DNA of 64,000 nt, from IMG/VR virus record IMGVR_UViG_3300045836_000108, positions 1-64,000 of that record. One strand, given 5' to 3'. This document shows, in pieces, positions 3,273-53,408 of the stretch (position 1 is its first letter; each line of letters opens with the position of its first letter). The notes below the pieces were generated by a model. It searched no databases. It worked only from the letters and a program-made list of their open reading frames with translations, and was not told where the DNA came from. This DNA comes from a virus (lineage: Duplodnaviria; Heunggongvirae; Uroviricota; Caudoviricetes). The translations under genes and the position numbers were made by a program.

Positions 3273-3430
3273 CCGACTGGACAGAGTTCAAGATCGGCGG
3301 TTGCCCGCCTGAGTTCCTGTGCGTACTCCATGAAAAGTGCGGCTGGTCCTGGGACACCTGGGACTGGGTCACGCTGACGCAGATTGTGGAGATCGTCAAC
3401 GCGCACGAGTGCGAGGAGGAGAAGAAATGA
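3269..3430 (+). CDS. Small Cys-containing hypothetical protein (53 aa)
   Basis: GTGA start-stop overlap with upstream gene; GGGAGGTGG RBS; Cys motifs GGCPPEFLC, EKCGW, HECEEE. Confidence 0.45.
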   Translation: MTDWTEFKIGGCPPEFLCVLHEKCGWSWDTWDWVTLTQIVEIVNAHECEEEKK

Positions 3431-4326
3431 CCTCCACGTCGGCGTTGATGCTGCTTCACAACCAGATCCACGTCCGGTCTCAGCAGCGTGAACTGGGCTG
3501 GTCCGACATCGGCGGATGCCGCCGCAGGGCCCGCTACGTCCTGGACGGTTACGAGCCGGTGAACCAGGTTTCGTCGGTGGTGGCGATGATCGGCACCGCC
3601 GTCCACAAGCAGATCCAGGCTGTCCTGGAGGCGTTGGGCCTGCCCGCCGAGTGGGAAGTCGAGTACGCAGGCATCAAAGGGCATTTTGACAGGTACGAGG
3701 AGGAGTTCCACCGACTGGTGGACACCAAGACCATCAGCTCGCGTTACCTGGAATCGCTCAAGTTACACGGTCCTCCGACGGCCAATCGTTGGCAGGTGTC
3801 CGGCTACGCAGCCGGGATGATCATCAACGGCTACAAGGTGAAGACCTGCCGCCTGGACTACCTCACCCGCGACACCGGGGAGGAGTGGCAGTACGAATGG
3901 TACTTCGACCCCCAGGACGTCAAAGACGCCTTGGAATGGCTGAAAGACGTCAAAGACGTCCCGTTTGACCTGGTGCCGCGCGACTACGAACCCGACTCCG
4001 CCTGGTGTCAGGGCTGCCCGTTTGGAGGCCGTGACGGCGGCATCTGCTGGCAGGGCGGCGTGCCGGACCGGGACCCGCGCTCAGTGATGCTGGCGGAGGG
4101 CGTGAAGGCTGCGGAAGCAGCGCAAGAGCTGTTCCTGCTGCGGAAGCAAATCAAGGACATGGACGCCAGAGCCAAGGAGTTGAAGGGGATTCTGGACGGG
4201 CTGCGGCCGGATGACCCGGGTGTGATCGTGAAGGCTGGCGACATGTTCTTGTCTTGGTCTCCGACGGGCCGGGGGGATTCCTATCAGCTCCGGTTCACGT
4301 CGCCTCCGCAGCCGAAGGTCGTTTAG
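3427..4326 (+). CDS. PD-(D/E)XK nuclease, Cas4/RecB-like exonuclease with Cys cluster (likely RecT partner)
   Basis: ATGA overlap start; N-terminal Cys (GGCRRRARY) plus C-terminal C-x2-C-x5..C cluster (CQGCPFGGRDGGIC), typical of Cas4-like Fe-S nucleases; adjacent to recT. Confidence 0.6.
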   Translation: MTSTSALMLLHNQIHVRSQQRELGWSDIGGCRRRARYVLDGYEPVNQVSSVVAMIGTAVHKQIQAVLEALGLPAEWEVEYAGIKGHFDRYEEEFHRLVDTKTISSRYLESLKLHGPPTANRWQVSGYAAGMIINGYKVKTCRLDYLTRDTGEEWQYEWYFDPQDVKDALEWLKDVKDVPFDLVPRDYEPDSAWCQGCPFGGRDGGICWQGGVPDRDPRSVMLAEGVKAAEAAQELFLLRKQIKDMDARAKELKGILDGLRPDDPGVIVKAGDMFLSWSPTGRGDSYQLRFTSPPQPKVV

Positions 4327-4378: not shown

Positions 4379-4603
4379 ATGGGCAACTACAAGGTCAAAG
4401 CCGTGCCCTGGGAACACGGCTTTGACCTCCACATCACTGGACCGGACGACTTCACCGGCTGCACCCAAGCCCTCAGCAACGGCGACATCCTGCCGTTGGC
4501 CAAGGACTACATCAGCCTCAACACCGGTGAAGCCTCCGATGAGATCGGCGTCACCCTCTCCTACAACATGCAGCCGGAAACGGAGACCCCCGTTGCAGAC
4601 TGA
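4379..4603 (+). CDS. Hypothetical protein (74 aa)
   Basis: ATG after CCGGAGGA RBS; very high GC3; preceded by a TATCGT promoter-like element. Confidence 0.6.
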   Translation: MGNYKVKAVPWEHGFDLHITGPDDFTGCTQALSNGDILPLAKDYISLNTGEASDEIGVTLSYNMQPETETPVAD

Positions 4604-4997
4604 CATCATCGACGCCGCGATGGACCTCGCCATCGCCCTCCCCAACGGCTGGCTCCAGGACTCCACCAACTGGGCCACCCGCTACCACGGCAGCATCCGC
4701 ATCGGACTGGCCGGACACATCGCCGCCACCGCCGGATGCGTCCTCCACTGGGACAGCAACACCGCCGACGCCACCGAATGGGTGCGCCGCGACTCCCTGC
4801 CGGAGGAGCACCGCCAGGCCGCCGACAACAGGGCCAAGGAACTCGACTGGCCGGACGACGTCTGTTCCATCTTCTACGCGGCCTGTCTCCTCACCGGCAT
4901 CAACGAGGAAACCGGCCTGAAGCTGTTCTCCAAGGGCGGCAGCATCACCTACACCCTGGGCCTCATCGAGGGCTACAAGATCGGAGCCGAGCTGTGA
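4593..4997 (+). CDS. Hypothetical protein (start uncertain, TTG 4593 or ATG ~4619)
   Basis: Frame open from 4422 but overlaps the previous gene; TTG after GGAAACGGAGA; ends in GTGA overlap with next gene. Confidence 0.45.
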   Translation: MQTDIIDAAMDLAIALPNGWLQDSTNWATRYHGSIRIGLAGHIAATAGCVLHWDSNTADATEWVRRDSLPEEHRQAADNRAKELDWPDDVCSIFYAACLLTGINEETGLKLFSKGGSITYTLGLIEGYKIGAEL

Positions 4998-8466: not shown

Positions 8467-8919
8467 ATGGAACAGCGCGGGCTGCCCGGAATCGACAAAT
8501 GGGAACTTCAGGTAGCCAACGCTCTAGCCACCGGCAAAGAAACGGAAGACGTCGCCGCCGCGTTGTTCATTGAGCCCCGCACCGTCAGGGCCCGCATGCG
8601 CCGCATCCAGACCAAAACCGGCGGACGGAACTCCGCGCATTCCCTGCATATCCTCATCAGCAACGGCCTCGTACACGTTGAGGACACACGGGAAAGCGTC
8701 AAGCTGGACTACGGACTGCTCACCATCCTCAGGGACATCTCCGACGGCCTCGAAAACCGGCACATCGCCGAAAAGCAGGACCTGACCCTGGACCAGGTGA
8801 AGTGGTACGTCAGGAAAATCTACATGGCGTTGCAGGCGCGTAACCGCGTCAACGCCATATACAGAGGTCACCAGACCGGGAACCTCACACCCAACAACCG
8901 GAGGAAAACAGATGGATAG
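8467..8919 (+). CDS. Tandem LuxR/GerE-type helix-turn-helix transcriptional regulator
   Basis: Two LuxR-C-like HTH units (ELQVANALATGKETEDVAAALFIEPRTVRARMRRI and LTILRDISDGLENRHIAEKQDLTLDQVKWYVRKI); G-rich RBS; preceded by a TATCGT promoter-like element. Confidence 0.6.
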   Translation: MEQRGLPGIDKWELQVANALATGKETEDVAAALFIEPRTVRARMRRIQTKTGGRNSAHSLHILISNGLVHVEDTRESVKLDYGLLTILRDISDGLENRHIAEKQDLTLDQVKWYVRKIYMALQARNRVNAIYRGHQTGNLTPNNRRKTDG

Positions 8920-9892
8920 CAACACCGGAAGAAACGTTGCCGTCGGAGGAATCGGCTGCCTCGTCGGGCTGGGAGTGCTGGGGGCCGCCGTCTACGGCAT
9001 CCCCATGGCCCTGTCCTACGAGTCCGTGTCCGCCGGACAGGTCGGCGTGGTCCGCCACACCGCGCCCTGGGACACCAAGAGCGTCAGCAAGATCCTGAAG
9101 CCCGGCAGCGGCTCCCAGTACGTCGGCGTCTGGAGCGACGTGCACATCTATCCGGCCACCCAGTCCAGCTACACCATCACCGACGACGCCAAGGAAGGCG
9201 ACGTGCCCGGCGTGGACGTCATCTCGGTGCCGTCGGCGGACGGCGTCCAGATGGGCATTCAGGGCACGTTGTACTTCACCCTGAATACCGACCCGGCCAC
9301 GATGAAGGAGTTCGACGACAAGTTCGGCACCCGCTCCTTCACCTACGGCGGTGAGTCCGGCAACGCCTACGGCGGCACCAAGGGCTTCGGGATCTTCGAG
9401 AACGCCATCGTCCGGCCCGTCATCAACAACGCCGTCCGGCAGGCCATCGCCACCAAGAAGTGCTCCGAGCTGCTGGCGTCGTGCGCCCTGGTGCAGAACA
9501 CCGGCCAGCAGGTGGACCTGACCAAGGTGCCCAACGGCAACGTCAACATCAACGACGTCCAGACGGCCATCGACACCGCCCTCCAGAACGACATCAACGC
9601 CACCCTCGGCGGCAACTACTTCAAGGACATCAAGTTCACCCTCACCAAGGTGGACGTGCCTCCGAACGTGCAGGACGCCATCAACCAGGCGCAGACCGCG
9701 TTCGCCAACGTCAGCAAGTCGCAGGCGGCCATCGCCGCCGCCCAGGCCGACGCCAAGGCCAACGAGACCCGGCAGCAGGGCTACAACGCCTGCCCCGTCT
9801 GCGGTCAGATCGACCTGCTGCACGCCCTGCCCCCAGGCGTCACCGTCTTCGCCCCCGGCTCCGGCACTGGCCTGCCGTTGACGGGGAAGTAG
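8912..9892 (+). CDS. SPFH/band-7 (stomatin/prohibitin/HflK-like) membrane protein
   Basis: N-terminal TM helix, QVGVV core, Ala/Gln-rich coiled region (QAAIAAAQADAKA). Confidence 0.55.
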   Translation: MDSNTGRNVAVGGIGCLVGLGVLGAAVYGIPMALSYESVSAGQVGVVRHTAPWDTKSVSKILKPGSGSQYVGVWSDVHIYPATQSSYTITDDAKEGDVPGVDVISVPSADGVQMGIQGTLYFTLNTDPATMKEFDDKFGTRSFTYGGESGNAYGGTKGFGIFENAIVRPVINNAVRQAIATKKCSELLASCALVQNTGQQVDLTKVPNGNVNINDVQTAIDTALQNDINATLGGNYFKDIKFTLTKVDVPPNVQDAINQAQTAFANVSKSQAAIAAAQADAKANETRQQGYNACPVCGQIDLLHALPPGVTVFAPGSGTGLPLTGK

Positions 9893-19995: not shown

Positions 19996-22900
19996 TTAGC
20001 GCTTGTACGGGGTGTAGGACGTGGAGTACCGGGCGCCCAGCTGAAGCATCTGCGTCTGGATGACGTCCCGCAGGTCCCGCTCCGACAGAACAGAGCCTTG
20101 GACGTTGACGATGATCGTGGGGCCGCCTCCCAGTGTCAGATTGCCGGAGCCGCCCGGAGACGCACCGAAACCGCGCTGCTCATCCAGGGACACCACGTAC
20201 TCTCCGCCGTGCACGATAGCCAGCTGCGGAGCCCCCGGAGGGCCATCCACAAACCCGCCCATGGCGTACGCCTTCAAGTGGCCGCCAGAGCCGTTAGCTC
20301 CGTTAGCCTGCGACGCCACAGACACGGCAGTGTTGGTTTCGTTGCTCATGTCAAGCAGACGACGCATTTTGCCGGTCAGAGTGTCCACGTTGCTGGAAGC
20401 AGCAGCCGTGTTGGCGGTGATGTTGGTGTTGATGTCCTTGGGGATGATGTCCAGCTGATCAATGTAGTCCCGAATGGACTTCCGGGTGGCGTCGGACTGG
20501 CTGGACTGGTTCACCAGCTGGTCAATCTGCTTCTTCAGCTTGTCCGTTGCGTCCTGCGTCGAACCGCTCAACTGCACGTTGGCGTTGTAGTTGTCCAACA
20601 TGGCCTGCACCGCAGCGCGGATAGCGTCACGGTTTGCCATAGCAGCGTCGGAGTCCCCCTTGATGGAGGTGCCGTTGTCCTGAAGAGCTTTGGTGACGTC
20701 CTTGATGCTTTTCTTGAACTCATCCAGGGAACGGTCCGCCGTCAAACCAGCCGACATATCCTGCTGCTGCTGCATCGTGTCGGAGATGCTGTTAGACAAC
20801 CCGGTCATGGCGTCCGTGGTGCTCTGAACCTGCGTCTGCTGGTTAGCCAACGAGTTGGTGGCGTCGTTGGTGGTGCCGATACCCAGCATCTGCTCGGCCT
20901 GCATTTTGTCCAACTCGGCAAAGTACTGCGGGAAGTCCCTAGCCGTGTTGATCAGCGCTTTGCCGTGGTCGTCCGTCACGGACGTGATCTGAGCCATCAG
21001 GTCCTTGGCGCGGTCCAGCTGGCCGTTAGCCGCCAGGTTAGCCAAGCCAGCGTCGTAGTTGGCTAGGGACGCTTTGGCTTTGCCGGTGACCTGGTTAACC
21101 TTGCCCAACTCAACACCCAGCTGAGCCATAGGCTCGATGTTCCTCACGGAGGACCCAGCCAGGTCGTCAAACGACCTTTGCAGGTTAATGACCTCTGTGC
21201 CTTCAAACTTGGTGTTGTCCGCCAACTTCCCGGCCAACGCCTTGTTCAACACGTCCAAGTCTTCAGCGGCATGCCCGAACGCCATAGCGGCATCCTTGGA
21301 GCCGTTCCTAGACCGGATCATCGCCGTGGTGAACTGGTCAACGCTGGCCGTCGCCGAAGCAGCTTTGTCTCCGCTGCTGGAGAACGCTGAGCCCAACAGA
21401 GACACGCCGATAGCCGCCGCTCCCACAAGAGGCACAGCGGCGCCCAGCTTACCCATGAAGCCGCCCAGACCGGAGGCGCCGGTTGCCCCGGCCATTTCCT
21501 CCTGAAGGGTCAACTCCTCCTTGCCCAGGTTCTTCACCGAGTCGGCTGCGTACATCGCCTTCAGCCGGAGCGTGTCGAACATGGTTCCGGATGCGATGGT
21601 TTTGCCGAGGGTCTGGAACATGGTCAATACCGTGCCCAAACCGTTCATCAAGCCGGTGAAGACTTCCAGCGACTTCAGGATGATCAACCGGCCGATCAGG
21701 GCAGGTAGAATCACCTCAGCCAGGAGCTTGATGGTGCCGGAGTGGTCCTTCAGGAAACCGGTCACTGCCTCCACGGCTGGGCCAACAACGTTGGCCATGA
21801 CGATACCGACGGCTTGGAGAGCCAGGAAGAAAGCCCCCGCCAGCAGACCGGCCAGAGGTTGGACAGCGCCCCACAAGTTGGTGACCGATACCCAAGCTTC
21901 CTTCAACACCCGTCCAAAGTTTTGAAGGAACTGGACGATGACGCCCTCAGCCTGGTGAACCGCGTCGGAGTCCAACGCGTCGTGGATGTCGCGTCCCAAG
22001 TCATGCAGTAGAGGACCGGCGGTGCGCTGCACGTAGTCCATGAACTCCATCAGTTTCGGCAGCAGCATCGTGCCGAGCTTGATTGCAGTGGTTTCAATGA
22101 ACTGCCGCGCCTGGTCAATCTTGAAGTTGAAGCCCTGGGTGATAACACCCCAGGTCTCGATGTTGTCCCCGGCGGTTTTGGCGCCGTCGGAGATGTTCTG
22201 CTCATTGGCGGCGAACGTCGCCAGGTTCACGCCGCCGATTTGCAACGCCGTGTTGGTGTCCACGGTGTCGCCCAACACCTTACGCAGAGCGCCAGCGAAC
22301 GTGTCCGCTCCCGGCACGCCGTTGCGCAAAGACTGGTTGAAGCTGTTGGCGTTCTTGTACAACGTCAAGAACTCAGAGCCTTGCGCCTTCAGGTTCTCCG
22401 GCAGCAGGTTCAAGGCGGCTGCGTAGTCCTTGGAGGAGATGGTGCCGTTCATCACCTCATCGGCAAGGTGACGCACCTCAGGCGCCATGTTAGACATCAT
22501 CTGGCTGAGGTTTTGCGACGCCACCTTGGAGGTGTTGAACGTGTTAGCCAGGTAGGTGTTGTCCGGGCCCAGGTGGTTCATGATGGCCTGGTCGATCTCG
22601 CCCATGGTCCCCAGCAGGCCGCGCTGTCCCAGGTGTTCCTTCAGGTCCATCGTGGACAAGCCGAAGGTGGCCATAGCCTTCACAGCCGTAGCGTTCGGAG
22701 ACTGCAACGACGCGATGGTGTGACCAAGCATCTGAGCTGAGTTCTGCGCGGTGTTACCGGCCACGGTCATGTTGGCCTCAGCGGCGGCGACGTCTGCGAA
22801 GCTGATACCGGCCTGAGCTGCCTGCGGCAGGACGGCGCTTAGGGAACCAGCGAAGTCCTCCATCGACATCTTGCCGGAGCCGACGGCCCGGATCATCATG

Positions 22901-23430
22901 TTCATCATCGGCACGGAATACTCCGCGCCCTTGCCCATGTCGTGCAGGGCAGTGGTCAACGCGTCAGCAACGGTGGTGACGTTGGCGCCTTCAGCACGGG
23001 CACCTTCTGCCGCGATCTTCATGACCTTCAGGCCGTTAGCGCCGTGGAAACCCGCAGACTCCACGTAGTACATGGCGTCCGCGAGGGCTTTGCTGGAGGT
23101 GCCGGTCTGAACGGACATGTTCAACAGTCCGTCGGAGACCTGCTTGATGGGTCCGGTCAGCTTCCCGTTAACGACGTTGCCGGTTTCTCCAGCAGACGTC
23201 ACCAGCTTGATCATCGACGCCTGCCAGTCACCGGCCATTTTCACCGAGACAGCAGTGATACCAACAGCGGCCAGGGAAACGATCTTCGCGGCCTTGGTGA
23301 CCGCCTCGCCGATCTTGTCGGCTTTGGCAGAGAAACCCTCCGCCTCGGCACCAGCCTTAGACAAACCCTCCGTGAAGCCCTGCGACACCAACCCGAGCTT
23401 GATGAAAAGGTCGGCAACTTCCGACGCCAC
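19996..23430 (-). CDS. Tape measure protein
   Basis: 1144 aa; Ala/Gly/Leu/Met-rich helical composition; position after chaperone pair. Confidence 0.8.
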   Translation of the reverse strand: MASEVADLFIKLGLVSQGFTEGLSKAGAEAEGFSAKADKIGEAVTKAAKIVSLAAVGITAVSVKMAGDWQASMIKLVTSAGETGNVVNGKLTGPIKQVSDGLLNMSVQTGTSSKALADAMYYVESAGFHGANGLKVMKIAAEGARAEGANVTTVADALTTALHDMGKGAEYSVPMMNMMIRAVGSGKMSMEDFAGSLSAVLPQAAQAGISFADVAAAEANMTVAGNTAQNSAQMLGHTIASLQSPNATAVKAMATFGLSTMDLKEHLGQRGLLGTMGEIDQAIMNHLGPDNTYLANTFNTSKVASQNLSQMMSNMAPEVRHLADEVMNGTISSKDYAAALNLLPENLKAQGSEFLTLYKNANSFNQSLRNGVPGADTFAGALRKVLGDTVDTNTALQIGGVNLATFAANEQNISDGAKTAGDNIETWGVITQGFNFKIDQARQFIETTAIKLGTMLLPKLMEFMDYVQRTAGPLLHDLGRDIHDALDSDAVHQAEGVIVQFLQNFGRVLKEAWVSVTNLWGAVQPLAGLLAGAFFLALQAVGIVMANVVGPAVEAVTGFLKDHSGTIKLLAEVILPALIGRLIILKSLEVFTGLMNGLGTVLTMFQTLGKTIASGTMFDTLRLKAMYAADSVKNLGKEELTLQEEMAGATGASGLGGFMGKLGAAVPLVGAAAIGVSLLGSAFSSSGDKAASATASVDQFTTAMIRSRNGSKDAAMAFGHAAEDLDVLNKALAGKLADNTKFEGTEVINLQRSFDDLAGSSVRNIEPMAQLGVELGKVNQVTGKAKASLANYDAGLANLAANGQLDRAKDLMAQITSVTDDHGKALINTARDFPQYFAELDKMQAEQMLGIGTTNDATNSLANQQTQVQSTTDAMTGLSNSISDTMQQQQDMSAGLTADRSLDEFKKSIKDVTKALQDNGTSIKGDSDAAMANRDAIRAAVQAMLDNYNANVQLSGSTQDATDKLKKQIDQLVNQSSQSDATRKSIRDYIDQLDIIPKDINTNITANTAAASSNVDTLTGKMRRLLDMSNETNTAVSVASQANGANGSGGHLKAYAMGGFVDGPPGAPQLAIVHGGEYVVSLDEQRGFGASPGGSGNLTLGGGPTIIVNVQGSVLSERDLRDVIQTQMLQLGARYSTSYTPYKR

Positions 23431-35843: not shown

Positions 35844-37223
35844 TCAGATGTTGGCAACAACCCGCGACAGACGACCAGCGTACTTCGGCGCCCGGAGCGC
35901 CAGCGTCGTGTCCGTCAGGACCGCGAACGGCAGCGTGTCCGGAGCCGTCACCGTCGGCGCCAGCGGCAGAATCTGCATGTTCCGGGTGTAAGGCCGGACC
36001 ATGAAGTTCGGGTCCATCGGCAGCAAGTAGATGTCCTCGTACGCGTTCTGCCCCACCGCAACCGGACGCGGCTTAGCGCCGGTGTTGGTGCCCACGTACG
36101 CCGTCGTGCCCGTGTTACCCGACGAGTTGGTGAGCAGGTTGGTGCCGGTGTCGATGATCGACGTGGTCGCGACACCGGTGGTGTCGAACGCGTCCACGAC
36201 GCCGATCAGCGTCTCAGCGCCGGTGGACGTGCCCCGGTACACCTTGTACAGGATCGGAGCCGCGCCGTCCGGCAGACCCGTCGGAGTCGAGAACGACAGC
36301 GTCACCGTGGAGGTGGAGCCGGTGGTGGTCTGGCTGACCTCCACCGAGCCTGCAATCTCACCGAAGCGGGCCACAACAGCCGACACGTTGTAGTAGTACG
36401 TGGCCGCCGCCAGCGTGCCGCCCGTGGTGGACGTCGCCGTGGTGACCGTACCCATCTGGAACGTGCGCGGCGACAAGAAGCTGGACTTCACCAGCGGGAT
36501 GCCACGGTACGTCGGCACGTTCAGACCGCCACCCAGGTTCGTGGTCGGCGCGGCGAAACGCTGCTGCGACACGAACAGCTGGGAGATAGCCGACACCATA
36601 CGGCCGGACATCAGCATCATCCACGGAGAACCGTCGATAGGCATGGCCGCGTTGGACTCGACCAGGTCAATCAGCTCGTCCAGCTTAGCCAGCGTAACGT
36701 TGCCATTGACGTCCTGCGCGTTCACAAACGCGTTGGAGCCGGTACCAGCAGTCCAGTTGGACACCAGGTAGTCCAGGCCGGTAGCCATCGGCTGCGTGCC
36801 GTTGGCCGTCGCCGGGTCGTTGCCCCAGACGAACGAGTTCTCCACGGTCCACAGCATCGACTGCACAGTGCCGTCCAGCTCCAGCTGGCGCAGGTCACCC
36901 ACGATGTCGCGGGTAACGGTCTGCGCGAAGCCGGTCACCGAACCAACAGCCTGGTACAGGCGGATGTTGTAGACAGACTGCTCGTACGTCGAGTTGCTGA
37001 TCGGACGCGCACCACCGTCGATGACGGCACCCGAGTCCGGCCGGTTCACCCGACGGTTGAAGAAGTACTGCGTGGAGTTCCACTGCTTGGTCGGGATAGC
37101 CGCCAGCATCGGAGAGTACCGGCGCTGGTACTCAAGCAGAACAGTGTCGATCGCCTTGGGAATGAGGGGGGTCACGGTCCCAGCCGTGGTCACCGCCTCT
37201 TCCAGCAGGGTCAGGTTAGGCAT
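35844..37223 (-). CDS. Major capsid protein (HK97-fold candidate)
   Basis: 459 aa; directly downstream of the protease/scaffold gene; typical MCP composition. Confidence 0.65.
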   Translation of the reverse strand: MPNLTLLEEAVTTAGTVTPLIPKAIDTVLLEYQRRYSPMLAAIPTKQWNSTQYFFNRRVNRPDSGAVIDGGARPISNSTYEQSVYNIRLYQAVGSVTGFAQTVTRDIVGDLRQLELDGTVQSMLWTVENSFVWGNDPATANGTQPMATGLDYLVSNWTAGTGSNAFVNAQDVNGNVTLAKLDELIDLVESNAAMPIDGSPWMMLMSGRMVSAISQLFVSQQRFAAPTTNLGGGLNVPTYRGIPLVKSSFLSPRTFQMGTVTTATSTTGGTLAAATYYYNVSAVVARFGEIAGSVEVSQTTTGSTSTVTLSFSTPTGLPDGAAPILYKVYRGTSTGAETLIGVVDAFDTTGVATTSIIDTGTNLLTNSSGNTGTTAYVGTNTGAKPRPVAVGQNAYEDIYLLPMDPNFMVRPYTRNMQILPLAPTVTAPDTLPFAVLTDTTLALRAPKYAGRLSRVVANI

Positions 37224-39699: not shown

Positions 39700-40695
39700 C
39701 TAGTTGAAGAATCCGCTGTACGCGGAGATGTCGAACTCTGCGGAGGACACGCAACGGCAGCGGGGGTGCGCAGGCATTGACGGAAAGTCCATGATCGGAA
39801 AAGGGCTGTCCTCGCCGTACTTCTCGCAAATGGCGCAGACCCTACCGTCCCCGGCAGTCATCCACGTCACCTTCTGCACGCCCTCCGACTTGTACAGGTC
39901 CAGGGCGCCACGGGACATACCGAACGAGGCGGCCCAGTCCACGATGAACGCAACCGTGTCCTCCTCCGGGGACAGGGCCCCCAGAACGTCCACACCGGCC
40001 CGCACCATCTGGCTGTACTCGGCGCCGGAAGCGGCAAGGTCCCCCATCGTGTGCATGAACTCGTCCGCTGCCCGCCCCAGCATGCGGTGCAGCCAGCTGT
40101 CCGCTTCTGCCCAGGTGGCGCCGTCGTTGGCCAGGGCGTCATAGGCGTGCTGGAACGCAATGTCGAAGTCAAAACCCAGCTTGTGCTCAGCAGAGGCCGC
40201 CACCGCCAAAGCGTCGGCAAAGCCCTCCGCCCGGGACGCCGTGATCAGGTCACGCATGATGTCCCGGAGTTCCTGCCACGAATTGGTGCCCGGGACCCAG
40301 GCTAGGAGGCGCATAGCCGCATCCCTAGCCTCCCGCTTGACCCGACGTAGCCAATCAGGGTCCGGGGCCGCCTCCGACAGTCCTACGGCGTTTCTGAACA
40401 ACTCCACGGCCCCGGCAACATCCAGAGCCGCTGTCGCCTGCCGCCACACCGGCAACAGCTTGGCCGTGAAGTCATCCATCAACTTGAACCGGCGGGCAAA
40501 CACCGACGCCCACACGCCTTCAAGCTTCCCCAGATGGATAGCAACCTCAAGGATGCCCGGCTGATCCCAGTTCTCAGCACACAAGTCCATCGCAGCGATA
40601 CAGCCCGCGTGGACCCGCTCCGTCATCGGACCGCCCGACATGGCCCAACCCTGCGCATACGCCGTACGGGCATACGGCCGGATGGCGTCGTTCAA
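39700..40695 (-). CDS. MuF-like minor capsid / head morphogenesis protein
   Basis: 331 aa; C-terminal CAICE...PAHPRCRC motif, characteristic of the Phage_Mu_F/SPP1 gp7 family. Confidence 0.6.
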   Translation of the reverse strand: MNDAIRPYARTAYAQGWAMSGGPMTERVHAGCIAAMDLCAENWDQPGILEVAIHLGKLEGVWASVFARRFKLMDDFTAKLLPVWRQATAALDVAGAVELFRNAVGLSEAAPDPDWLRRVKREARDAAMRLLAWVPGTNSWQELRDIMRDLITASRAEGFADALAVAASAEHKLGFDFDIAFQHAYDALANDGATWAEADSWLHRMLGRAADEFMHTMGDLAASGAEYSQMVRAGVDVLGALSPEEDTVAFIVDWAASFGMSRGALDLYKSEGVQKVTWMTAGDGRVCAICEKYGEDSPFPIMDFPSMPAHPRCRCVSSAEFDISAYSGFFN

Positions 40696-43244: not shown

Positions 43245-43409
43245 CTATCAACGTCTAAGCCAAGACTCCACAGGCAGAAGGTGCAGAGCCAGAAAAGCCG
43301 CCGCCAGAGCCAGCAGCGCCTCCGGGGAGAACCACGTGTTGGTGTGGGCTCCCAAACCAATCAGGATGAAGTCCAAGACGGCCGCGATTACGGCCAGAAC
43401 AGCGAACAT
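43245..43409 (-). CDS. Small membrane protein (54 aa, 2 TM)
   Basis: ATG after GGAGGT overlapping the dcd stop; hydrophobic; not in the ORF track; coordinates approximate. Confidence 0.35.
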
Positions 43410-43987
43410 CAGCGCACCTCCGTGCGGTGAAAGTTGATCCAGCCCCGGGACGGGGTCGGACCGCGCTGTCCCTGATACCTGCTGCCGTTGGCTTTATTCC
43501 CGTACGGCTCCTCCGCTGGGGAGGACAGCTGAAAGAAACACAGCTGCCCGATCTTCATCCCCGGCCACAGCTTCACCGGCAACGACGCGACATTGGACAA
43601 CTCCAACGTGACGTGGCCTGTGAACCCGGGATCGATGAAACCAGCGGTGGAGTGGACCAGAAGCCCCAGGCGCCCCAGAGAAGACTTCCCCTCCAGCCGC
43701 GCCGCAACATCGTCCGGGAGAGACACTGCCTCCAGTGTCGAACCCAGGACGAACTCCCCGGGGTGGAGGATGAACGGCTCACCGCCCTCTGGCTCCACCA
43801 TCCGGGTCAGCCCCGGCTGCTCCACAGACGGGTCAATAACTGCGTAGCGGTGGTTCTCAAACACCCGGAAGAACCGGTCCAGCCGGACGTCCACGGAGGA
43901 CGGCTGCACCATGGAGAAGTCCAGCGGGTCCAGACCGATGTGTCCCTTGGCGATGCTTGCGCGGATGTCCCTGTCGGAGAGCAGCAT
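43409..43987 (-). CDS. dcd: dCTP deaminase
   Basis: 192 aa; full-length match in character to Dcd ([21 protein letters not shown]...[17 protein letters not shown]...). Confidence 0.75.
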
Positions 43988-44006
43988 CCAAGCAGCCTAG
44001 CCTGTG

Positions 44007-44089
44007 CGGAAGACGAGGGAATCGAACCCCCAACGGTGTTACCCGCCACGGTTTTCGGGACCGCTTGACTCTCCAATGTCGGGTCTTCC
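44007..44089 (-). tRNA. Type II tRNA-like gene, anticodon CGA (Ser?) with C33
   Basis: 83 nt; acceptor GGAAGAC/GTCTTCC, T-arm GGGGGTTCGATTCCCTC, anticodon arm GCGGT-CCCGAAA-ACCGT, long variable arm; coordinates +/-2. Confidence 0.5.
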
Positions 44090-44185
44090 TTGCGCCTGGT
44101 TTGGGTTTCCAACCCATCCGGGAGCACGGCGTTGCGCAAACCAGGCAAGACCTGCCGTTCTCGACGCGGCAGGTGCTCCATCAGT

Positions 44186-44256
44186 GGGCGGCCGTGGGAT
44201 TCGAACCCACACGCACGGAAACGGGTCCGCTGTCCTACCTGTTAGACCAGACCGCC
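44186..44256 (-). tRNA. Atypical tRNA-like gene (6-nt anticodon loop; possible pseudo-tRNA)
   Basis: Acceptor GGCGGTC/GGCCGCC, D-arm GTCT..AGAC-like, T-arm GTGGGTTCGAATCCCAC are canonical but the anticodon arm folds only as GCGGA-CCCGTT-TCCGT. Confidence 0.35.
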
Positions 44257-44378
44257 CATGACACGGAGTCGTAAGACCCTTGGCTGTCAAGCAGCGCAGG
44301 CGACGTGTCTCGCCCCAGTACCCCACTGGCCAGGTGGAGCGCTTGCGGTTTGTAGTGACCGATACCGCCAAACGGTCG

Positions 44379-44484
44379 CGGAGAGAGTAGGGATTGAACC
44401 TACGCCAAGGGGATTACGTCCCTTTGGGCACCGGCCGCCTGATCAGGGCCCAGACCGGTCCCATTGCCACTCTGGCACCTCTCC
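44379..44484 (-). tRNA. Aberrant 106-nt tRNA-like element (Ser-like arms with ~11-nt insertion in the anticodon loop and oversized variable region)
   Basis: Acceptor GGAGAGG/TCTCTCC, T-arm GTAGGTTCAATCCCTAC, D region GTGCCAGAGTGGCAATGG, Ser-like anticodon stem CCGGT...GCCGG enclosing 18 nt. Confidence 0.3.
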
Positions 44485-44489
44485 AACGT

Positions 44490-44564
44490 CGGGATAGCAG
44501 GATTCGAACCTGCGCTCTCCTGATCCCAAATCAGGCGCCCTCGTCCAAGCTAGGCCACATCCCG
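44490..44564 (-). tRNA. tRNA-Pro (anticodon TGG), slightly atypical D-arm
   Basis: Acceptor CGGGATG/TATCCCG, anticodon arm CCTGA-TTTGGGA-TCAGG (U33, G37), T-arm GCAGGTTCGAATCCTGC. Confidence 0.55.
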
Positions 44565-44625
44565 TTGGCTGGGTGACCGGACAGCGCGCGTGCCCGTGAA
44601 GTACCGTGCGCCGTCCGGACCCCCA

Positions 44626-44698
44626 GTGGAGCAGGTGGGACTCGAACCCACATCCGCCTGCTTGCAAAGCAGGTGCTCAGCCATTGAGCTACAACCCC
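44626..44698 (-). tRNA. tRNA-Ala (anticodon TGC) with encoded CCA
   Basis: G3-U70 wobble, D-arm GCTC-AATGGCT-GAGC, anticodon arm CCTGC-TTTGCAA-GCAGG, T-arm GTGGGTTCGAGTCCCAC, 3' CCA. Confidence 0.65.
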
Positions 44699-44785: not shown

Positions 44786-45127
44786 TTACTCGTCACGGCC
44801 AAAAGCGGAATCCCGCGCCCTACGCAACACACGGATCAGCCGGTTCAGCTCATCCCTGGACAACGGCGGCAGGAACCGCTCCGTGGCCGTGTTGTTGGGA
44901 GGCCAACAATCCGCACCCTCATAGTCCTCCCACGGCTGCGGCTCATGCGACACCACTGTCAGCTGCACGTAGCCCTTAACCTGGGAGCCGTCGTGCCAGC
45001 GCACATACAAGATGTCGTCCATCTCAGCCGTGGCACCCTCATCCGAGCCCCGCAGACCGGGCAGGCCGGGCAGGCCGTGCAGCATTTTCCGCCAATGCGC
45101 AAAGTTGATCTGTTCCTTCGGCATCAC
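44786..45127 (-). CDS. Hypothetical protein (113 aa)
   Basis: GTG/ATG after GGAGGTGGC RBS. Confidence 0.5.
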   Translation of the reverse strand: MMPKEQINFAHWRKMLHGLPGLPGLRGSDEGATAEMDDILYVRWHDGSQVKGYVQLTVVSHEPQPWEDYEGADCWPPNNTATERFLPPLSRDELNRLIRVLRRARDSAFGRDE

Positions 45128-45777: not shown

Positions 45778-46047
45778 TCAGGGCCGGACCTTAATACGCT
45801 GCACAATCAGGATGTGCCAGTCAGTGGCTTCCTTGTCGTCCCGCGCAGGCCGGTACGGTACAAACCCAACCCCAGGCAGATGCAACACCAACTCGCCATC
45901 ATCTGCCTCTACCCACCAAGTAATAGACCAACCAGACCGCTTCACCGGCTGAACACCCCAGCGGGTGCCGTCCTCCCGGGGCTCGCCGTTGAAGAGGCAG
46001 TCCATAGCCTCCTCAAACGACATGCCGGTTTTCACTCCAACCACCAC
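45778..46047 (-). CDS. Hypothetical protein (89 aa)
   Basis: ORF track; overlaps stop of upstream gene. Confidence 0.45.
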   Translation of the reverse strand: MVVGVKTGMSFEEAMDCLFNGEPREDGTRWGVQPVKRSGWSITWWVEADDGELVLHLPGVGFVPYRPARDDKEATDWHILIVQRIKVRP

Positions 46048-48611: not shown

Positions 48612-50288
48612 CTAGGCATCGTTGCTCCTTCCCGGCCCGGGAAGCTGCTTCAGAGCTTCTTTCCGGCGGGCCCTGTACGCGCGGTCCCACGATGCCGTCA
48701 GAGCGCGCCTATCGGCCTCTGAGGCTGTTTCCCGGGGCGGCTTGCCCTGAGTGGCGTCCTTAGGAAGTCCCGGACCAACAAGCGGCGACATCTTGGCGTT
48801 GGGATGCATGTCCGGGACTGGAGCGACCTTCCCGCCTGACACCGCAGCAGCATTAGCAGCCAAAGCAGCCGGAGGCTCCGGAACCTCAGCGTCCGGCAGT
48901 CCCGGCACGTAGCCGTTGACACCGGCAGCGGTCAGAGGGGCAGCGTTCTTGCCGACGCTGGCCTTGGACATCGCTTCCATGTCGTCCCACGCCACGATGC
49001 CGGTGCGGGTGTCCACGATGTTGATGTCTCCGCCGTCGATAGGCGGCTTGCCCAGTTCCGCACGCCAGTCGTTGACGGAGTACGCACCGTACTTGAGCCG
49101 CAGCTCACGCACCTGCTCCACCGTGAGACTGTCACGGAAGTCCACCTCGGCGAACTCCAGATGCCAGCCTTTGATGCCGAATCCCTGCTGAACGATGTGG
49201 TAGTTCAGCTTCTCCAGCAGAAGGTTGGCGATCGGGATGACCGTGTTCACCTGGAACGACTTGTTTTGTGCCTCGCCGGAGCCGCCGCCGATGTTGCCGG
49301 TCTCGATGATCCCCACCTTGGACGGGGGAACGCCGAACGCTGCGATAATCTGGTCCCGCAGCACCCGCTCCGTGTCCAGGTAGTCGGAGACCTTACGCGG
49401 GTCCAGCACCTGCACAGCGCCGCCGCCGGAGGTAATGACGGGGTTGCCGACGGCTTTGGGCCCCAGGTTGAACACCTGGTACTGCTCCCGCCAGCGTTGG
49501 ATGTCGGTGTCTTCGTAGTGGGCCAGGTCCACGTGGATGCGGGGCGGGTCTCCGCGCCGGAAGCATTCCTGGATGGTGGCCATGGTGAAGATCCAGGCGG
49601 TAACCGGAAGCAGGGCTAGCTGCGCCGGGGACACGCCGTACAGGCCTCCGCGCGGGGAGTCCAGGGAGATGTGCACCACCTCGTGGATCTTGAACTCTGC
49701 CTGCCGTAGCCCATCCACGTCCTGCCGGTAGCCGGTCACTTCCCCATGGGAGTCCGCAATCACGGTCATGGTGGTGGCGTCCAGCAGGTATAGAGCAACC
49801 GGCTGCCCCAGAAGCCAGATCACCTCAATGTAGGCGTCGCCAAAGAGCTGCAAGGACGTGATGACCATCCGCAGCAGCTGGATGATGTCCTGGGTTTCGT
49901 TGGTGAACTTCATCAGACGGCGCAGGTTAAGCACCTCTGGTGGCTCTTCCGGGACTTCATCCTCGGGTACGTCATCGTCTGGGACTATCTGGAGCCCTCC
50001 GGCGGTGACGGTGCGGGCGATAACGCCGATAGCGCTGCTCATCCAGCCGCAGGTGTTGTAGGCGTCGTGGAGGTGTTGGAGCAGTTGTTGACGCTCTGCC
50101 GATGCTGCCATCTGCTGGGACGGCATGTCGGAGGTGAGGGGGACGCCGAATTCAAAGCCGCGTCGGCGGATCTGCGCTGCGGTCCATTCGGGCATGAGCG
50201 CTTGGGCGGATGGTGCGTTTTGTTTGGCTTCTTGGGACTGCTCGGTGCGGAAGCCGAGGAGGCGTGCGAGGCCGTTGCCGACACCCAT
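48612..50288 (-). CDS. Portal protein
   Basis: 558 aa; after terminase in transcription order; typical portal size/composition. Confidence 0.65.
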   Translation of the reverse strand: MGVGNGLARLLGFRTEQSQEAKQNAPSAQALMPEWTAAQIRRRGFEFGVPLTSDMPSQQMAASAERQQLLQHLHDAYNTCGWMSSAIGVIARTVTAGGLQIVPDDDVPEDEVPEEPPEVLNLRRLMKFTNETQDIIQLLRMVITSLQLFGDAYIEVIWLLGQPVALYLLDATTMTVIADSHGEVTGYRQDVDGLRQAEFKIHEVVHISLDSPRGGLYGVSPAQLALLPVTAWIFTMATIQECFRRGDPPRIHVDLAHYEDTDIQRWREQYQVFNLGPKAVGNPVITSGGGAVQVLDPRKVSDYLDTERVLRDQIIAAFGVPPSKVGIIETGNIGGGSGEAQNKSFQVNTVIPIANLLLEKLNYHIVQQGFGIKGWHLEFAEVDFRDSLTVEQVRELRLKYGAYSVNDWRAELGKPPIDGGDINIVDTRTGIVAWDDMEAMSKASVGKNAAPLTAAGVNGYVPGLPDAEVPEPPAALAANAAAVSGGKVAPVPDMHPNAKMSPLVGPGLPKDATQGKPPRETASEADRRALTASWDRAYRARRKEALKQLPGPGRSNDA

Positions 50289-51131: not shown

Positions 51132-51431
51132 GTGCCCAAAGCTACCTGCCTCAAGTGCTCCAACACCGCCACAATCGCCATGCTCTGCGGCAAGTGCTAT
51201 CGCAACAGCCAGACGGAAGTGCCGGTTGCCCACCGGCCGGAACCGCGCGTTACGAAAATCCCCACGGCTGCCGGACCTGCGGTTTCTTACGAAACTCCAC
51301 CAGCTGGAGTGCAGCAGACCCGCTGTGAAGCCCCGGGCTGCGAGACTTTCGTAAGCCAACAGCCGACTGGCCGCCGCAAGCGGTTCTGCTCCGCGCGCTG
51401 CCGGGTGCGCTTCAACGCCGCCAAGGACTAG
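51132..51431 (+). CDS. Zinc-finger protein with N-terminal CxxC..CxxC and C-terminal RKRFCSARCR (FCS-like) motif
   Basis: 99 aa; + strand, converging on the large terminase gene. Confidence 0.45.
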   Translation: MPKATCLKCSNTATIAMLCGKCYRNSQTEVPVAHRPEPRVTKIPTAAGPAVSYETPPAGVQQTRCEAPGCETFVSQQPTGRRKRFCSARCRVRFNAAKD

Positions 51432-52984
51432 ATCCCCCACGGGTTCCCTGACGGGTGCAGCACCGGGAAGCCCCCGATGACCTCTCCCTTGTAGGCCGGG
51501 GTGAACTCTCCCCGCTGCTTCGGGTCCAACACGACGTCGCCGCCCGTAGGGACCGGCTCCGGCCAGTGGAACCGCACCTCGTTGCCCAGGTTCACCAGCA
51601 TGTACCGGAGCGCGTCTGCGGCATGGTCTGGGGCTTTAGGGTCTGAGTCCTCCGGGTTGCCGGTCTTGGCGTACGGCAAGTCCGCAAGCTCACTGAACAG
51701 CTTCATGCACGGGGAGAAAATGTGCAGCCTCGGGCAGGTTTCCCAACCCTCCGCCGCGTGCATCCGGCAAGCCGGAGCCTCAGCAAGGAACGAGTGGACA
51801 CGCTGCCAGCCCGCTACCCGGCTGCCCGGTCCCTTCCCTGCCTTCTCCAGATGCACGCCGTTCTCCGCGTACACCTGCGCGATGGGCTTAGCGTCACCGT
51901 TAACAGCCCACATTGCGTCGTCTGCGTACCGGGCTGTGATGGACTCTCCCGGCTGCTCTGCGGCCAAAATAGACCGTGCCTGTTCTGTCTCCCCGATACC
52001 GGTCTGGTAGATCTCCCGATAGATCCACAACCGCTTGTCCTCGTCCAAAGCACCCCACAGGACAGCCCACGGCGCTGCGAAACCCCAGTCCACAGACATG
52101 TACCGGCGCCACGTCTCCGGCAACGTCAAAGGCTGCACCACATGCCGGTCGTACGACAGCTCCGGGAACACCTGGCCCTCAAAGACGTCCCAGTTGCCGT
52201 CCACGTAGGCCTTGCGGAGCTGTTCCGGCAGACCCATCAAGTCCGCGCGGTACTCCTCATTCAGGTGCGGGTTGTCCGACAGCTTCGACGGGATGAAACG
52301 CACTGTCCGCTTGCGTTTCTCATCCAACACGACTTCCTGGCCGTACTTGGTGGGCTTGATGTACCGGTCCTTGGTGGCCGAGTGCGACGGGCCACCAGGG
52401 TTGGAACCAGACCGGATACCCAACACCGGAATGTTGTTGCCGGACCGCAGCCGCGACTCCAGGAACGTCAACACGTCCGACGGCGTCAGCGTCCGCTCAT
52501 CAAACAGCAACAGCTGAAACTCGGAGCCCTGACGGCGGGAAGCGTCCACCATGTTCTCGGCGTACCGGAACATCATGATCGAGCCGTTCGGGAACCTCAG
52601 CTCGTAGTCCCCACCAGCCCACTTAGCGCCAAGGACGTTAGCAAACCCGTAGGATGCCAACTCCTTAATCAGCGACTCCTTCAGCTCCGGGTACGTCCTC
52701 CGGAACGCACCCACCCGGATACCCGGGTACCGCACACACGCCCGGATACCCTCCATCAGCAGGGCAACAGTCTTCCCGCCGCCAACAGCACCGCCGTACA
52801 ACACGTCATACTCGGTGGCGTCGTGGAACATCTGCTGACGCGGCGTCGGAACGTAGCCCAGAGCAGCGAAAACGTCCGTACGCCGCATCTTCTCAAGCTG
52901 GATCTTGTTGTACTGCTCCTGAAGCCTCTTCAGCTCCTCCAGCCGGGAGAGCTTGTACGCTGCCAGGCTCATCTCCCCAGCCAT
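51428..52984 (-). CDS. Terminase large subunit (start uncertain; frame open to 53086)
   Basis: Walker A-like GGAVGGGKT near the N-terminus; ~520-550 aa; ATG 52984 has a GGAGGGA RBS. Confidence 0.7.
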   Translation of the reverse strand: MAGEMSLAAYKLSRLEELKRLQEQYNKIQLEKMRRTDVFAALGYVPTPRQQMFHDATEYDVLYGGAVGGGKTVALLMEGIRACVRYPGIRVGAFRRTYPELKESLIKELASYGFANVLGAKWAGGDYELRFPNGSIMMFRYAENMVDASRRQGSEFQLLLFDERTLTPSDVLTFLESRLRSGNNIPVLGIRSGSNPGGPSHSATKDRYIKPTKYGQEVVLDEKRKRTVRFIPSKLSDNPHLNEEYRADLMGLPEQLRKAYVDGNWDVFEGQVFPELSYDRHVVQPLTLPETWRRYMSVDWGFAAPWAVLWGALDEDKRLWIYREIYQTGIGETEQARSILAAEQPGESITARYADDAMWAVNGDAKPIAQVYAENGVHLEKAGKGPGSRVAGWQRVHSFLAEAPACRMHAAEGWETCPRLHIFSPCMKLFSELADLPYAKTGNPEDSDPKAPDHAADALRYMLVNLGNEVRFHWPEPVPTGGDVVLDPKQRGEFTPAYKGEVIGGFPVLHPSGNPWGI

Positions 52985-53408
52985 ACTCGGATCCCTCCAG
53001 ACGGAGCTGCTTACCCAACTCTTCAATCTGCCTGTCGATAGCGTCCACGGACGTGATCTCCAGGTTGACCTGGAGCGTCGGGTCAAGCTTCAACAGCTTG
53101 CAGATACGGTCCGTGACCTTCAAGACCATGTCGCCTGCGCCCTTGTCGCCCTTTACCGCGTCACCCCAGAAGGCCCGCCGCATCCGCAGCAGCACCAGCA
53201 GCTGTTCCTCGATGAGGAGGTCCACGTTGCGGGTGCGTTCCATGACGTGCTGCTCAAGAGCACGGTCGATGTCTACCGCTGCTGCGGAGCGTCCGGCGTA
53301 GCCCAGCTGGTCGGCAATCTGCTGGTAGGTGAGGCCTGCCAGTTTCAGCTCGACAGCTTGCGCTCGACGCTTGGCTGTAACGATCTGCTGCGCTTTGGAT
53401 GCCGCCAC
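52893..53408 (-). CDS. Terminase small subunit candidate (HTH-containing)
   Basis: GTG start; HTH LTYQQIADQLGY; immediately upstream of the large terminase. Confidence 0.5.
   Translation of the reverse strand: MAASKAQQIVTAKRRAQAVELKLAGLTYQQIADQLGYAGRSAAAVDIDRALEQHVMERTRNVDLLIEEQLLVLLRMRRAFWGDAVKGDKGAGDMVLKVTDRICKLLKLDPTLQVNLEITSVDAIDRQIEELGKQLRLEGSEYGWGDEPGSVQALPAGGAEEASGAVQQDPA

Follow-up and report, generated by a model that had tools for sequence, protein, structure and literature searches.

A tRNA island of a soil actinophage lineage contains a serine tRNA derivative with a doubled anticodon arm

We analysed 64,000 nucleotides of a tailed-phage genome of the Caudoviricetes (IMG/VR record IMGVR_UViG_3300045836_000108, positions 1 to 64,000; referred to below as the window), in which the minus strand carries five tRNA-shaped genes at 44006-44698, between an open reading frame (ORF) for a 113-aa protein and a dCTP deaminase gene. 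The cluster is a tRNA island that belongs to the late (structural) operon; the lineage, one of soil actinophages, has genomes of about 100 kb. Two of its genes, Ala(UGC) and Pro(UGG), are ordinary canonical tRNAs, and a third, Ser(CGA), carries a recurrent variant of the anticodon loop. The other two are odd. A 106-nt gene is the lineage's Ser(GCU) tRNA with its loop rebuilt into an anticodon arm of double length, and a gene with a 6-nt anticodon loop belongs to a family in which a class I body carries an NGA triplet of serine type in a loop that lacks the usual U33/R37 frame. The reading that we prefer, tentatively and from sequence comparison, is that this fast-evolving island would combine translation support with counter-defence, the two odd genes serving as non-decoding tRNA mimics.

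The five genes were found by ARAGORN and Rfam on the minus strand, at the place given in the initial annotation, which had been made by folding the sequence by hand. The Rfam tRNA model RF00005 has a gathering score of 29 bits, and this was exceeded by tRNA-Ala, tRNA-Pro and the two odd genes, in the case of the 106-nt gene only when permissive filters were used (scores and coordinates are given in Table 1). The anticodon loops of tRNA-Ala and tRNA-Pro are of 7 nt, position 33 being U and position 37 a purine; this is not so in Ser(CGA), which has C33, or in the two odd genes, whose loops are of 6 and 20 nt. Both canonical tRNAs have orthologues in relatives, those of tRNA-Ala being in L089, L098, L090, L138 and L150 (L-numbers are labels of related or compared contigs). 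The near-canonical character of tRNA-Pro and the G3.U70 identity pair of tRNA-Ala had been recognised correctly. The CCA end that had been ascribed to tRNA-Ala was a misreading, however: the letters are C71-C72-A73, and positions 74-76 read CUG. None of the five genes encodes a CCA end. The hand folds were otherwise essentially right, and the search programs neither called all five genes canonical nor dropped the odd ones.

The 106-nt gene aligns with the Ser(GCU) tRNAs of four relatives over its acceptor stem, its D arm and the 5′ strand of its anticodon stem. The loop of these Ser(GCU) tRNAs, UUGCUAG, is invariant in eight islands. In the window gene 20 nt, UCUGGGCCCUGAUCAGGCGG, stand in place of the 7-nt loop, which makes it longer by 13 nt; relative to Ser(GCU) the variable arm is also longer by 8 nt and the T arm has diverged. 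In the predicted fold the anticodon arm consists of 7 bp, a 3-nt bulge, 3 bp and a 7-nt loop, CUGAUCA, and the acceptor, T and variable arms are kept. The initial description of this element as one with Ser-like arms, a long loop and an oversized variable region is accurate except for the size of the loop insertion, which had been put at about 11 nt. Within the insertion is a 10-nt palindrome, CCUGAUCAGG, identical to the strands CCUGA and UCAGG of the neighbouring tRNA-Pro anticodon stem joined without their loop, and this match suggests that the insertion may have come from template switching or recombination inside the array. The insertion is not a spliceable intron. Introns in the anticodon loops of bacterial tRNAs are self-splicing group I elements of hundreds of nucleotides, the permissive Rfam scan gave no Intron_gpI match, and the position of the 'intron' in the ARAGORN call is arbitrary.

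Because the predicted anticodon arm, at about 10 bp, is roughly twice the normal length, and by established tRNA geometry a doubled arm cannot reach the decoding site, the product of this gene would be unable to present an anticodon to the ribosome. It does keep a long variable arm, G73, G1-C72 and G2-C71. These features, which can be read from the sequence in both the 106-nt gene and Ser(CGA), make up the identity set of seryl-tRNA synthetase, an enzyme that does not need the anticodon. Since the recognition elements are retained, charging by this synthetase is conceivable.

The same derivative is present in L089, a contig whose portal protein is 98% identical to that of the window. The two copies are 96% identical, and none of the four substitutions among the 106 nt breaks a pair: two are in the D loop, one precedes the variable stem, and one turns G7.U66 into G-C. 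The spacer between tRNA-Ala and tRNA-Pro, compared between the same two genomes, differs at 10 of 61 positions (84% identity; Fisher p = 0.0075 against the 4 of 106). This difference points to retention of the derivative under constraint. A scan of IMG/VR with the 5′ pattern of the Ser(GCU) genes showed the pattern to be generic to phage Ser(GCU) genes; a match in L123 was a chance one within coding sequence. As a separate observation, L119, an unrelated 100-kb viral contig, carries a class II tRNA gene (4591-4677, minus strand) that matches the Ser(GCU) genes of the lineage over its first 28 nt. Its loop is UUCAGUC, with the anticodon CAG of a leucine codon reader and U37, and a U follows the acceptor stem.

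The gene with the 6-nt loop, CCCGUU, had been described as a 71-nt gene that folds only in this way. Its length is 71-74 nt, and the small loop was borne out by ARAGORN, which assigned a 2-nt anticodon and no isotype. Its D arm is Glu-like, its variable loop has 4 nt, and G-1 and C73 are present. Aligned with homologues from L082, L084 and L140, it forms a family in which G35 is invariant and A36 is absent only from the window copy; the loops of L084 and L140 differ at position 34 alone (AGA versus CGA). The family shares a cloverleaf in which 96.8% of cells are paired and 7 of 21 pairs show compensatory double changes, two of them in the anticodon stem. Values of this size were reached in none of 500 shuffles, and slid controls collapsed. 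Common to the body are the Glu-like D arm with U11-A24, the 4-nt variable loop and C73, and three members have an A1xG72 mismatch at the end of the acceptor stem. A tRNA-His has G-1 paired to C73 and the anticodon GUG; here G-1 and C73 occur in the window copy and L082, L084 and L140 have C at -1, a GUG anticodon is absent and the D arm is Glu-like. BLAST of the window gene against annotated phage tRNAs was uninformative on isotype. When IMG/VR was scanned with a pattern for the family, only members of the group were returned, with one unrelated tRNA/tmRNA fragment, L105.

Ser(CGA) was called by ARAGORN at a relaxed threshold only, and its best Rfam match was to the tRNA-Sec model RF01852, which is in the same clan as RF00005. 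It is not a tRNA-Sec: the score of 37.1 bits lies under the threshold of 47, the acceptor and T stems are of 7 and 5 bp, and the anticodon is CGA, not UCA. The tRNA has G73, C8 in place of U8, and the loop CCCGAAA, so that the anticodon and the C33 noted initially are both present. As an aberration, however, C33 did not stand up. The same loop occurs in the Ser(CGA) tRNAs of L110 and L113, and CCGGAAA in the Ser(GGA) tRNA of L086. The L110 tRNA is 83% identical to that of the window overall; the anticodon and variable arms are identical over 34 nt, and covariation is seen in the T and acceptor stems. U33 is missing from 15 of 283 tRNAs of unrelated phage loci, and nearly all of the 15 have C33 instead. 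A scan of IMG/VR with the pattern of the C33 arm of Ser(CGA) found only L110.

The class II Ser(CGA), Ser(UGA) and Ser(GGA) tRNAs of the relatives have the same odd architecture: the D arm is short, and position 8, almost universally U, is C. Despite acceptor and T stems of 7 and 5 bp and serine anticodons, these Ser(NGA) tRNAs score higher on the tRNA-Sec model than on the general tRNA model. Ten members of the family, aligned and folded with RNAalifold, gave a 7/5 class II cloverleaf with compensatory changes in 15 of 25 pairs. From this comparison we conclude that the window Ser(CGA) is a family member ordinary in all but C33, and probably a functional tRNA with a recurrent and conserved loop variant. 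The effect of C33 may be a lower decoding efficiency or protection from nucleases.

Non-canonical anticodon loops are frequent in the lineage. In 12 distinct related islands they were found in 13 of 50 tRNA-like genes, compared with 20 of 284 in unrelated phage loci (p = 2.5e-4). An odd gene is present in nine of the 12 islands, and the bodies of the odd genes are not homologous to one another. Besides the Glu-like family of the 6-nt-loop gene, odd class I genes with a GCUC/GAGC D arm have the loops CGGAAG (L098), UAAGAAU (L089), UUCAGG (L150) and UUCGAAGG (L102), and the odd gene of L151 is a Tyr-like class II tRNA with the loop GUGCAC. Ser(GCU) follows the odd gene at a distance of 0-62 nt in L084, L140, L150 and L151, and comparison of the window with L089 shows one odd gene swapped for another at the same junction. 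Several of the odd loops contain NGAA, as do the Ser(NGA) tRNAs. Islands of the lineage stockpile up to four serine isoacceptors, of which the window, relative to its relatives, has lost Ser(UGA) and Ser(GGA). Recurrence, intact stems and turnover as cassettes would be expected of a selected, fast-evolving component of the islands, and not of random decay.

Two of the spacers between the tRNA genes are structured. The 121-nt element upstream of the 6-nt-loop gene, sp120, folds into five hairpins and is 86% identical in L098 (12788-12907) and L082 (10218-10337), in each case between tRNA genes; the three sequences show six compensatory pairs across the five hairpins. Nothing in Rfam matches it. 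In L150 and L151, gaps of about 120 nt were considered as further homologues and rejected, their sequences being unrelated, and an IMG/VR scan with an sp120 pattern returned only a duplicate of L098. Hairpin 2 has an anticodon-arm-like loop of 7 nt, CUGGCCA in the window (44322-44328) and CUGAUCA in the relatives, and the change from UGAUCA to UGGCCA keeps the self-complementarity. The CUGAUCA of the relatives is also the loop at the tip of the anticodon arm of the Ser(GCU) derivative (44440-44446). Palindromic hexamers resembling restriction sites occur in a series of anticodon-like loops, CUGAUCA, CUGGCCA, CUGUACA, GUGCAC and UUCGAA, at loci that beyond the window include L138 5274-5370, L151 998-1089 and L102 1764-1842. 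The first three share C32-U33-G34-N-N-C37-A38. Such loops could reflect quasi-palindrome template switching or loop-loop pairing.

The second structured spacer, sp94, corresponds to the long inverted repeats that had been noted at 44090-44180, and it does form two strong hairpins (44090-44183; fold z = -2.6). It is built from tRNA-Ala-like pieces (D arm and anticodon stem) and the tRNA-Pro anticodon arm, in sense and antisense orientation. The spacer is 100% identical in L089 and absent from the other relatives, whose spacers are unrelated in sequence and all closed by terminal inverted repeats of about 10 bp. A role of the island spacers as processing hairpins is plausible.

The codon use of the phage is in keeping with Ala(UGC), Pro(UGG) and Ser(CGA) acting as a tRNA supply. 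Serine makes up 7.4% of codons in the late, minus-strand genes and 4.8% in the plus-strand genes. GCU and GCA together account for 37% of Ala codons in late genes versus 19% on the other strand, and CCU and CCA for 24% versus 13% of Pro codons. Late genes are markedly richer in U- and A-ending Ala, Pro and Ser codons, and they are also richer in ACG and UCG.

The genes next to the island are the dCTP deaminase, already recognised in the initial annotation as adjoining the cluster, and the 113-aa protein. Homologues of the latter were found in 22 metagenomic protein clusters, and beside the islands of L102, L110, L136-L138, L140, L150 and L151 in varying orientation. Farther upstream are two ORFs that match the Tad2 domain (Thoeris anti-defence 2), the second more weakly, an arrangement shared with L134, L140 and L153. 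In L136, L137 and L138 the island is followed by a HAD_SAK_2 protein, with a 'Swiss Army Knife' RNA-repair HAD domain (30 bits). These three contigs also encode, after the island, a 495-aa fusion with an N-terminal 2H phosphoesterase domain of the 2′-5′ RNA ligase superfamily (56 bits, weak similarity to Acb1). The C-terminal part of the fusion is homologous to the window ORF at 39700-40695 (minus strand), which is without the 2H domain. In the window the place of the HAD_SAK_2 and 2H genes is taken by the dCTP deaminase. That enzyme was of little help as a route to relatives, because most of its matches were unrelated or host-like loci beside tRNA-Gly(CCC); only L006 was useful.

Table 1. Features of the tRNA island, its relatives and the surrounding window
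Feature	Position	Strand	Basis and remarks
tRNA-Ala(UGC)	44626-44698	minus	ARAGORN; RF00005 66 bits; loop UUUGCAA, G3.U70, A73
tRNA-Pro(UGG)	44488-44564	minus	ARAGORN; RF00005 62.3 bits; loop UUUGGGA, C1-G72, A73
106-nt class II tRNA-Ser(GCU) derivative	44379-44484	minus	RF00005 35.4 bits, permissive scan; ARAGORN in intron mode only
sp120, 121-nt structured RNA element	44258-44378	minus	five hairpins; conserved between tRNA genes
Class I tRNA-shaped gene, 6-nt loop	44184-44257	minus	ARAGORN 'tRNA-??? (cg)', 2-nt anticodon; RF00005 47.4 bits
Homologues of the 6-nt-loop gene	L082 9479-9552; L084 8198-8269; L140 3263-3334		family alignment
Loops of the 6-nt-loop family			window CCCG-UU; L082 GUCGAUA; L084 CGAGAAG; L140 CGCGAAG
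sp94, spacer	44090-44183	minus	two strong hairpins, fold z = -2.6
tRNA-Ser(CGA), class II	44006-44089	minus	ARAGORN at -ps92; RF01852 37.1 bits
dCTP deaminase	43409-43987	minus	Pfam DCD 160 bits; PHROG 1663; immediately downstream of island
113-aa protein	44786-45127	minus	phrog_10659; immediately upstream of island
Tad2-like protein, 86 aa	45219-45479	minus	PF11195 33.3 bits, cut-off 25; two genes upstream of island
Second Tad2-like ORF, weaker	45778-46047	minus	PF11195 20.5 bits
HAD_SAK_2 and 2H-fusion genes, L137	5060-5464; 5723-7210	minus; plus	
HAD_SAK_2 and 2H-fusion genes, L138	5460-5879; 6170-7657		
Large terminase subunit	51428-53086	minus	window annotation
Portal protein	48612-50288	minus	window annotation
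Major capsid protein	35844-37223	minus	window annotation
Tape measure protein	19996-23430	minus	window annotation

In the reading that we prefer, the three decoding tRNAs would support translation of the late genes, and the serine-heavy island may replace host serine tRNAs destroyed by actinobacterial anticodon nucleases. The neighbouring genes, of anti-defence type in the window and of RNA-repair type in relatives, speak for the counter-defence part. Neither the Ser(GCU) derivative nor the 6-nt-loop gene should be able to decode normally. Their RNAs would be processed like tRNAs, possibly with the structured spacers as processing modules, and would then engage tRNA-directed host factors, the derivative perhaps still being recognised by seryl-tRNA synthetase. 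That such RNAs act on host factors as mimics is what we infer from a conserved tRNA shape that does not decode. The aberrant loops themselves would arise through indels or template switching among the tandem genes. A more specific proposal, which we think unlikely, is that the slot for odd tRNAs provides RNA decoys that titrate or block tRNA-directed nucleases of the host, for example tRNA-Ser-specific enzymes of the PIN/VapC type; RNAs with serine-type or deformed anticodon arms would then be processed like tRNAs and would bind or resist the nucleases.

Several observations weigh against the mimic reading. The derivative is confined to the window and L089, eight other islands keeping the invariant Ser(GCU) loop, and divergence between these two genomes is patchy (none of the 94 positions of sp94 differs), which weakens the argument for selection. 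The window copy of the 6-nt-loop gene has lost the NGA triplet of its homologues; this looks like inactivation, and the copy may be an inactivated family member. The obvious tRNA fragments in sp94 show that rearrangement debris does accumulate in the island. Among about 45 window proteins scanned, no RNA-repair or tRNA enzyme was recognisable, and the Tad2-like domain is common in phages, so that the argument from neighbourhood is weak.

Plain decay, the strongest alternative, is a serious possibility. According to this explanation the Ser(GCU) derivative, through its 13-nt insertion, and the 6-nt-loop gene, through a 1-nt deletion, were recently inactivated by recombination and replication slippage in the tandem array and are functionless, host tRNAs sufficing. 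The initial annotation had named decaying pseudo-tRNAs as one explanation of the aberrant loops, and this fits part of the findings: within its family the window copy alone has lost A36, a loop invariant elsewhere has been replaced, the palindrome and sp94 are both made of recognisable pieces of neighbouring tRNAs, and two serine isoacceptors have been lost. Decay does not readily explain why the stems of both odd genes are all intact and the damage is limited to the anticodon loop, nor the strong compensatory evolution in the 6-nt-loop family. The derivative has been retained in L089, from which it diverges less than the adjacent spacer and no more than tRNA-Ala does, and the odd genes of the nine islands have unrelated bodies and often the same position 5′ of Ser(GCU).

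The cloverleaves and hairpins could alternatively be mere punctuation, serving as signals for RNases P, Z and III or as stabilisers of mRNA ends while the loops drift freely. The island does lie within a co-directional late operon, where no promoter-like or terminator-like sites above chance level were found around it; the terminal inverted repeats that close the spacers are present in all relatives with unrelated sequences, and folds are conserved where loops are not. The canonical tRNAs already present would serve this purpose equally well, however, and the excess of NGA(A) in the odd loops and their position beside Ser(GCU) would be left unexplained. We therefore regard punctuation alone as quite improbable.

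A role in recoding, which had also been put forward initially for frameshift-suppressor or decoding-altering tRNAs, is highly doubtful. The odd genes would in this case bring about -1 or +1 frameshifting, read doublets or quadruplets, or, as class I NGA tRNAs charged with an amino acid other than serine, misread serine codons. Three of the four members of the 6-nt-loop family do have a serine-type triplet at positions 34-36 (AGA, CGA and CGA), the difference between L084 and L140 is at the wobble position only, as in a decoding family, and C73, with G-1 in two members, recalls histidine identity. Bacterial suf-type +1 suppressors have 8-nt anticodon loops with a 4-nt anticodon. An 8-nt loop occurs in the relative L102 and in neither odd gene of the window, whose loops are of 6 nt without the U-turn base and of 20 nt folded into an arm of about 10 bp; neither matches a known suppressor. 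Position 33 is G, C or A in most members of the 6-nt-loop family. The A1xG72 mismatch of three members is of a type that disfavours delivery by EF-Tu, as established for initiator tRNA. A candidate recoding site was neither found nor required, and misreading of serine across the proteome would be costly.

That the indels were created by assembly or sequencing, for which nothing speaks beyond the general risk of metagenomic assemblies, is excluded: a JGI assembly (L135) and a Logan assembly (L134), made from different samples, are 100% identical over the 1301 nt around the island, so that the odd features are real, and the Ser(GCU) derivative occurs again, with substitutions, in L089, which shares its source metagenome with L135.

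Earlier work has described phage tRNA islands, phage tRNAs with variant loops and tRNA pseudogenes. What is new here is the stockpiling of serine isoacceptors, the conserved C33 of Ser(CGA), the recurrent slot for genes with deformed anticodon arms, and the doubled-arm Ser(GCU) derivative. The YrlA Y RNAs contain tRNA mimic modules in which the anticodon arm is replaced by a protein-binding helix, and they resemble the odd genes in having a tRNA-like acceptor/T/D core, an anticodon arm turned to another use and a presumed non-decoding role. Unlike them, the odd genes have no Rfam Y-RNA match and no Rsr/Ro gene was seen, and the Ser(GCU) derivative keeps a class II variable arm and seryl identity. 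With tRNA pseudogenes in arrays the island shares indels in anticodon loops, tRNA fragments in a spacer (sp94) and loss of isoacceptors relative to sister genomes; it differs from them in the intact stems, the compensatory evolution, the retention across diverged genomes and the recurrence in 9 of 12 islands.

Enlarged anticodon loops are found in the suf-type suppressors and in yeast mitochondrial tRNA-Thr1, which has a loop of 8 nt (PMC4267643). These tRNAs likewise combine an intact cloverleaf with a loop that is not of 7 nt, but their loops, of 8 nt or, in some engineered cases, 9 nt, retain U33 and an anticodon that can be read, whereas those described here are of 6 and 20 nt, the latter forming an extra helix. 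The tRNA-Sec and allo-tRNA families, which have been reviewed with other natural non-canonical tRNAs (PMC7609411), have the class II shape and long variable arm in common with the serine tRNAs of the lineage, whose Ser(NGA) members favour the Rfam tRNA-Sec model. Their lengthened anticodon stems are of 6 bp, far shorter than the bulged arm of the Ser(GCU) derivative. Their acceptor and T stems are 8/5, 9/4, 8/4 or 9/3, in contrast to 7 and 5 bp in the lineage. The tRNA-Sec anticodon is UCA, as against CGA, UGA and GGA, and the lineage tRNAs score below the tRNA-Sec gathering threshold.

The closest parallels are phage tRNAs that evade nucleases. Phage tRNAs, those of cluster C1 mycobacteriophages being an example, have been proposed to escape anticodon nucleases through mutations in the loop (PMC10264068), they evade retron and other defence effectors (PMC11555353), and a virally encoded tRNA neutralises PARIS (PMC11464382). 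In Mycobacterium tuberculosis, VapC28 and VapC30 cleave tRNA-Ser(UGA/CGA), and mapping placed the VapC28 cut in tRNA-Ser(UGA) between G and A of the anticodon loop (PMC5175351). Points of likeness are the counter-defence setting of tandem phage tRNA genes, the concentration of substitutions in the anticodon loop, C33 of Ser(CGA) being one, and an actinobacterial background in which VapC toxins cut this isotype. The known evading tRNAs, however, are decoders with 7-nt loops, in contrast to the 6-nt loop and doubled arm described here, which should prevent normal decoding. Cluster C1 mycobacteriophages are reported to avoid Ser(NGA) tRNAs (PMC10264068), and in this they are the opposite of the window lineage with its up to four serine isoacceptors.

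Phage tRNA genes are now viewed as weapons against defences that cut tRNAs, and the known cases are decoders with point changes in the loop. The lineage described here stockpiles serine tRNAs, which are the targets of actinobacterial VapC toxins and are reportedly avoided by cluster C1 mycobacteriophages. If the odd genes are functional mimics, phage counter-defence would extend beyond the supply of replacement tRNAs to RNA decoys, and the islands would offer naturally occurring tRNA bodies, their anticodon arms deformed, with which recognition by nucleases and synthetases could be studied. Should the genes be nothing but debris, the locus still illustrates the breaking and reshuffling of tandem tRNA arrays.

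The window has a G+C content of 63% and carries its structural genes on the minus strand, tail fibres included (Table 1). It has no DNA-level match among cultured phages, and their portal proteins are no more than 26% identical to its own. Related metagenomic contigs of about 100 kb have portal proteins 61-98% identical to that of the window, and more distant portal homologues (46-59%) were found in genomes of Streptomyces, Streptacidiphilus, Amycolatopsis and Actinomycetospora. From these homologues in actinobacterial genomes, the host is most likely a soil actinobacterium.

Apart from the island genes, ARAGORN reported a tRNA-Phe at 49438-49517, which was rejected as it lies within the portal gene and appears at the relaxed threshold only. 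No transfer-messenger RNA (tmRNA) was found in the window by ARAGORN or Rfam. A tmRNA call in L089 (3984-4398) is probably false: it overlaps tRNA-Ala, and its upstream sequence differs from that of the window, where it is without a counterpart. A separate tRNA-Met(CAU) is encoded at 56333-56408 on the minus strand of the window. Its acceptor stem begins with a C1xU72 mismatch, which is conserved in L090 (3180-3255) and L098 (2874-2951) and is an initiator-like feature; the anticodon stem is without the three G-C pairs of initiators. Other Pfam matches in the window, weak to moderate in strength, were a RecT-like protein (1857-2912), a PD-(D/E)XK nuclease (3337-4326), a LuxR-type regulator (8467-8919), SPFH/Band 7 (8912-9892) and a C92 papain-like amidase (54474-55001).

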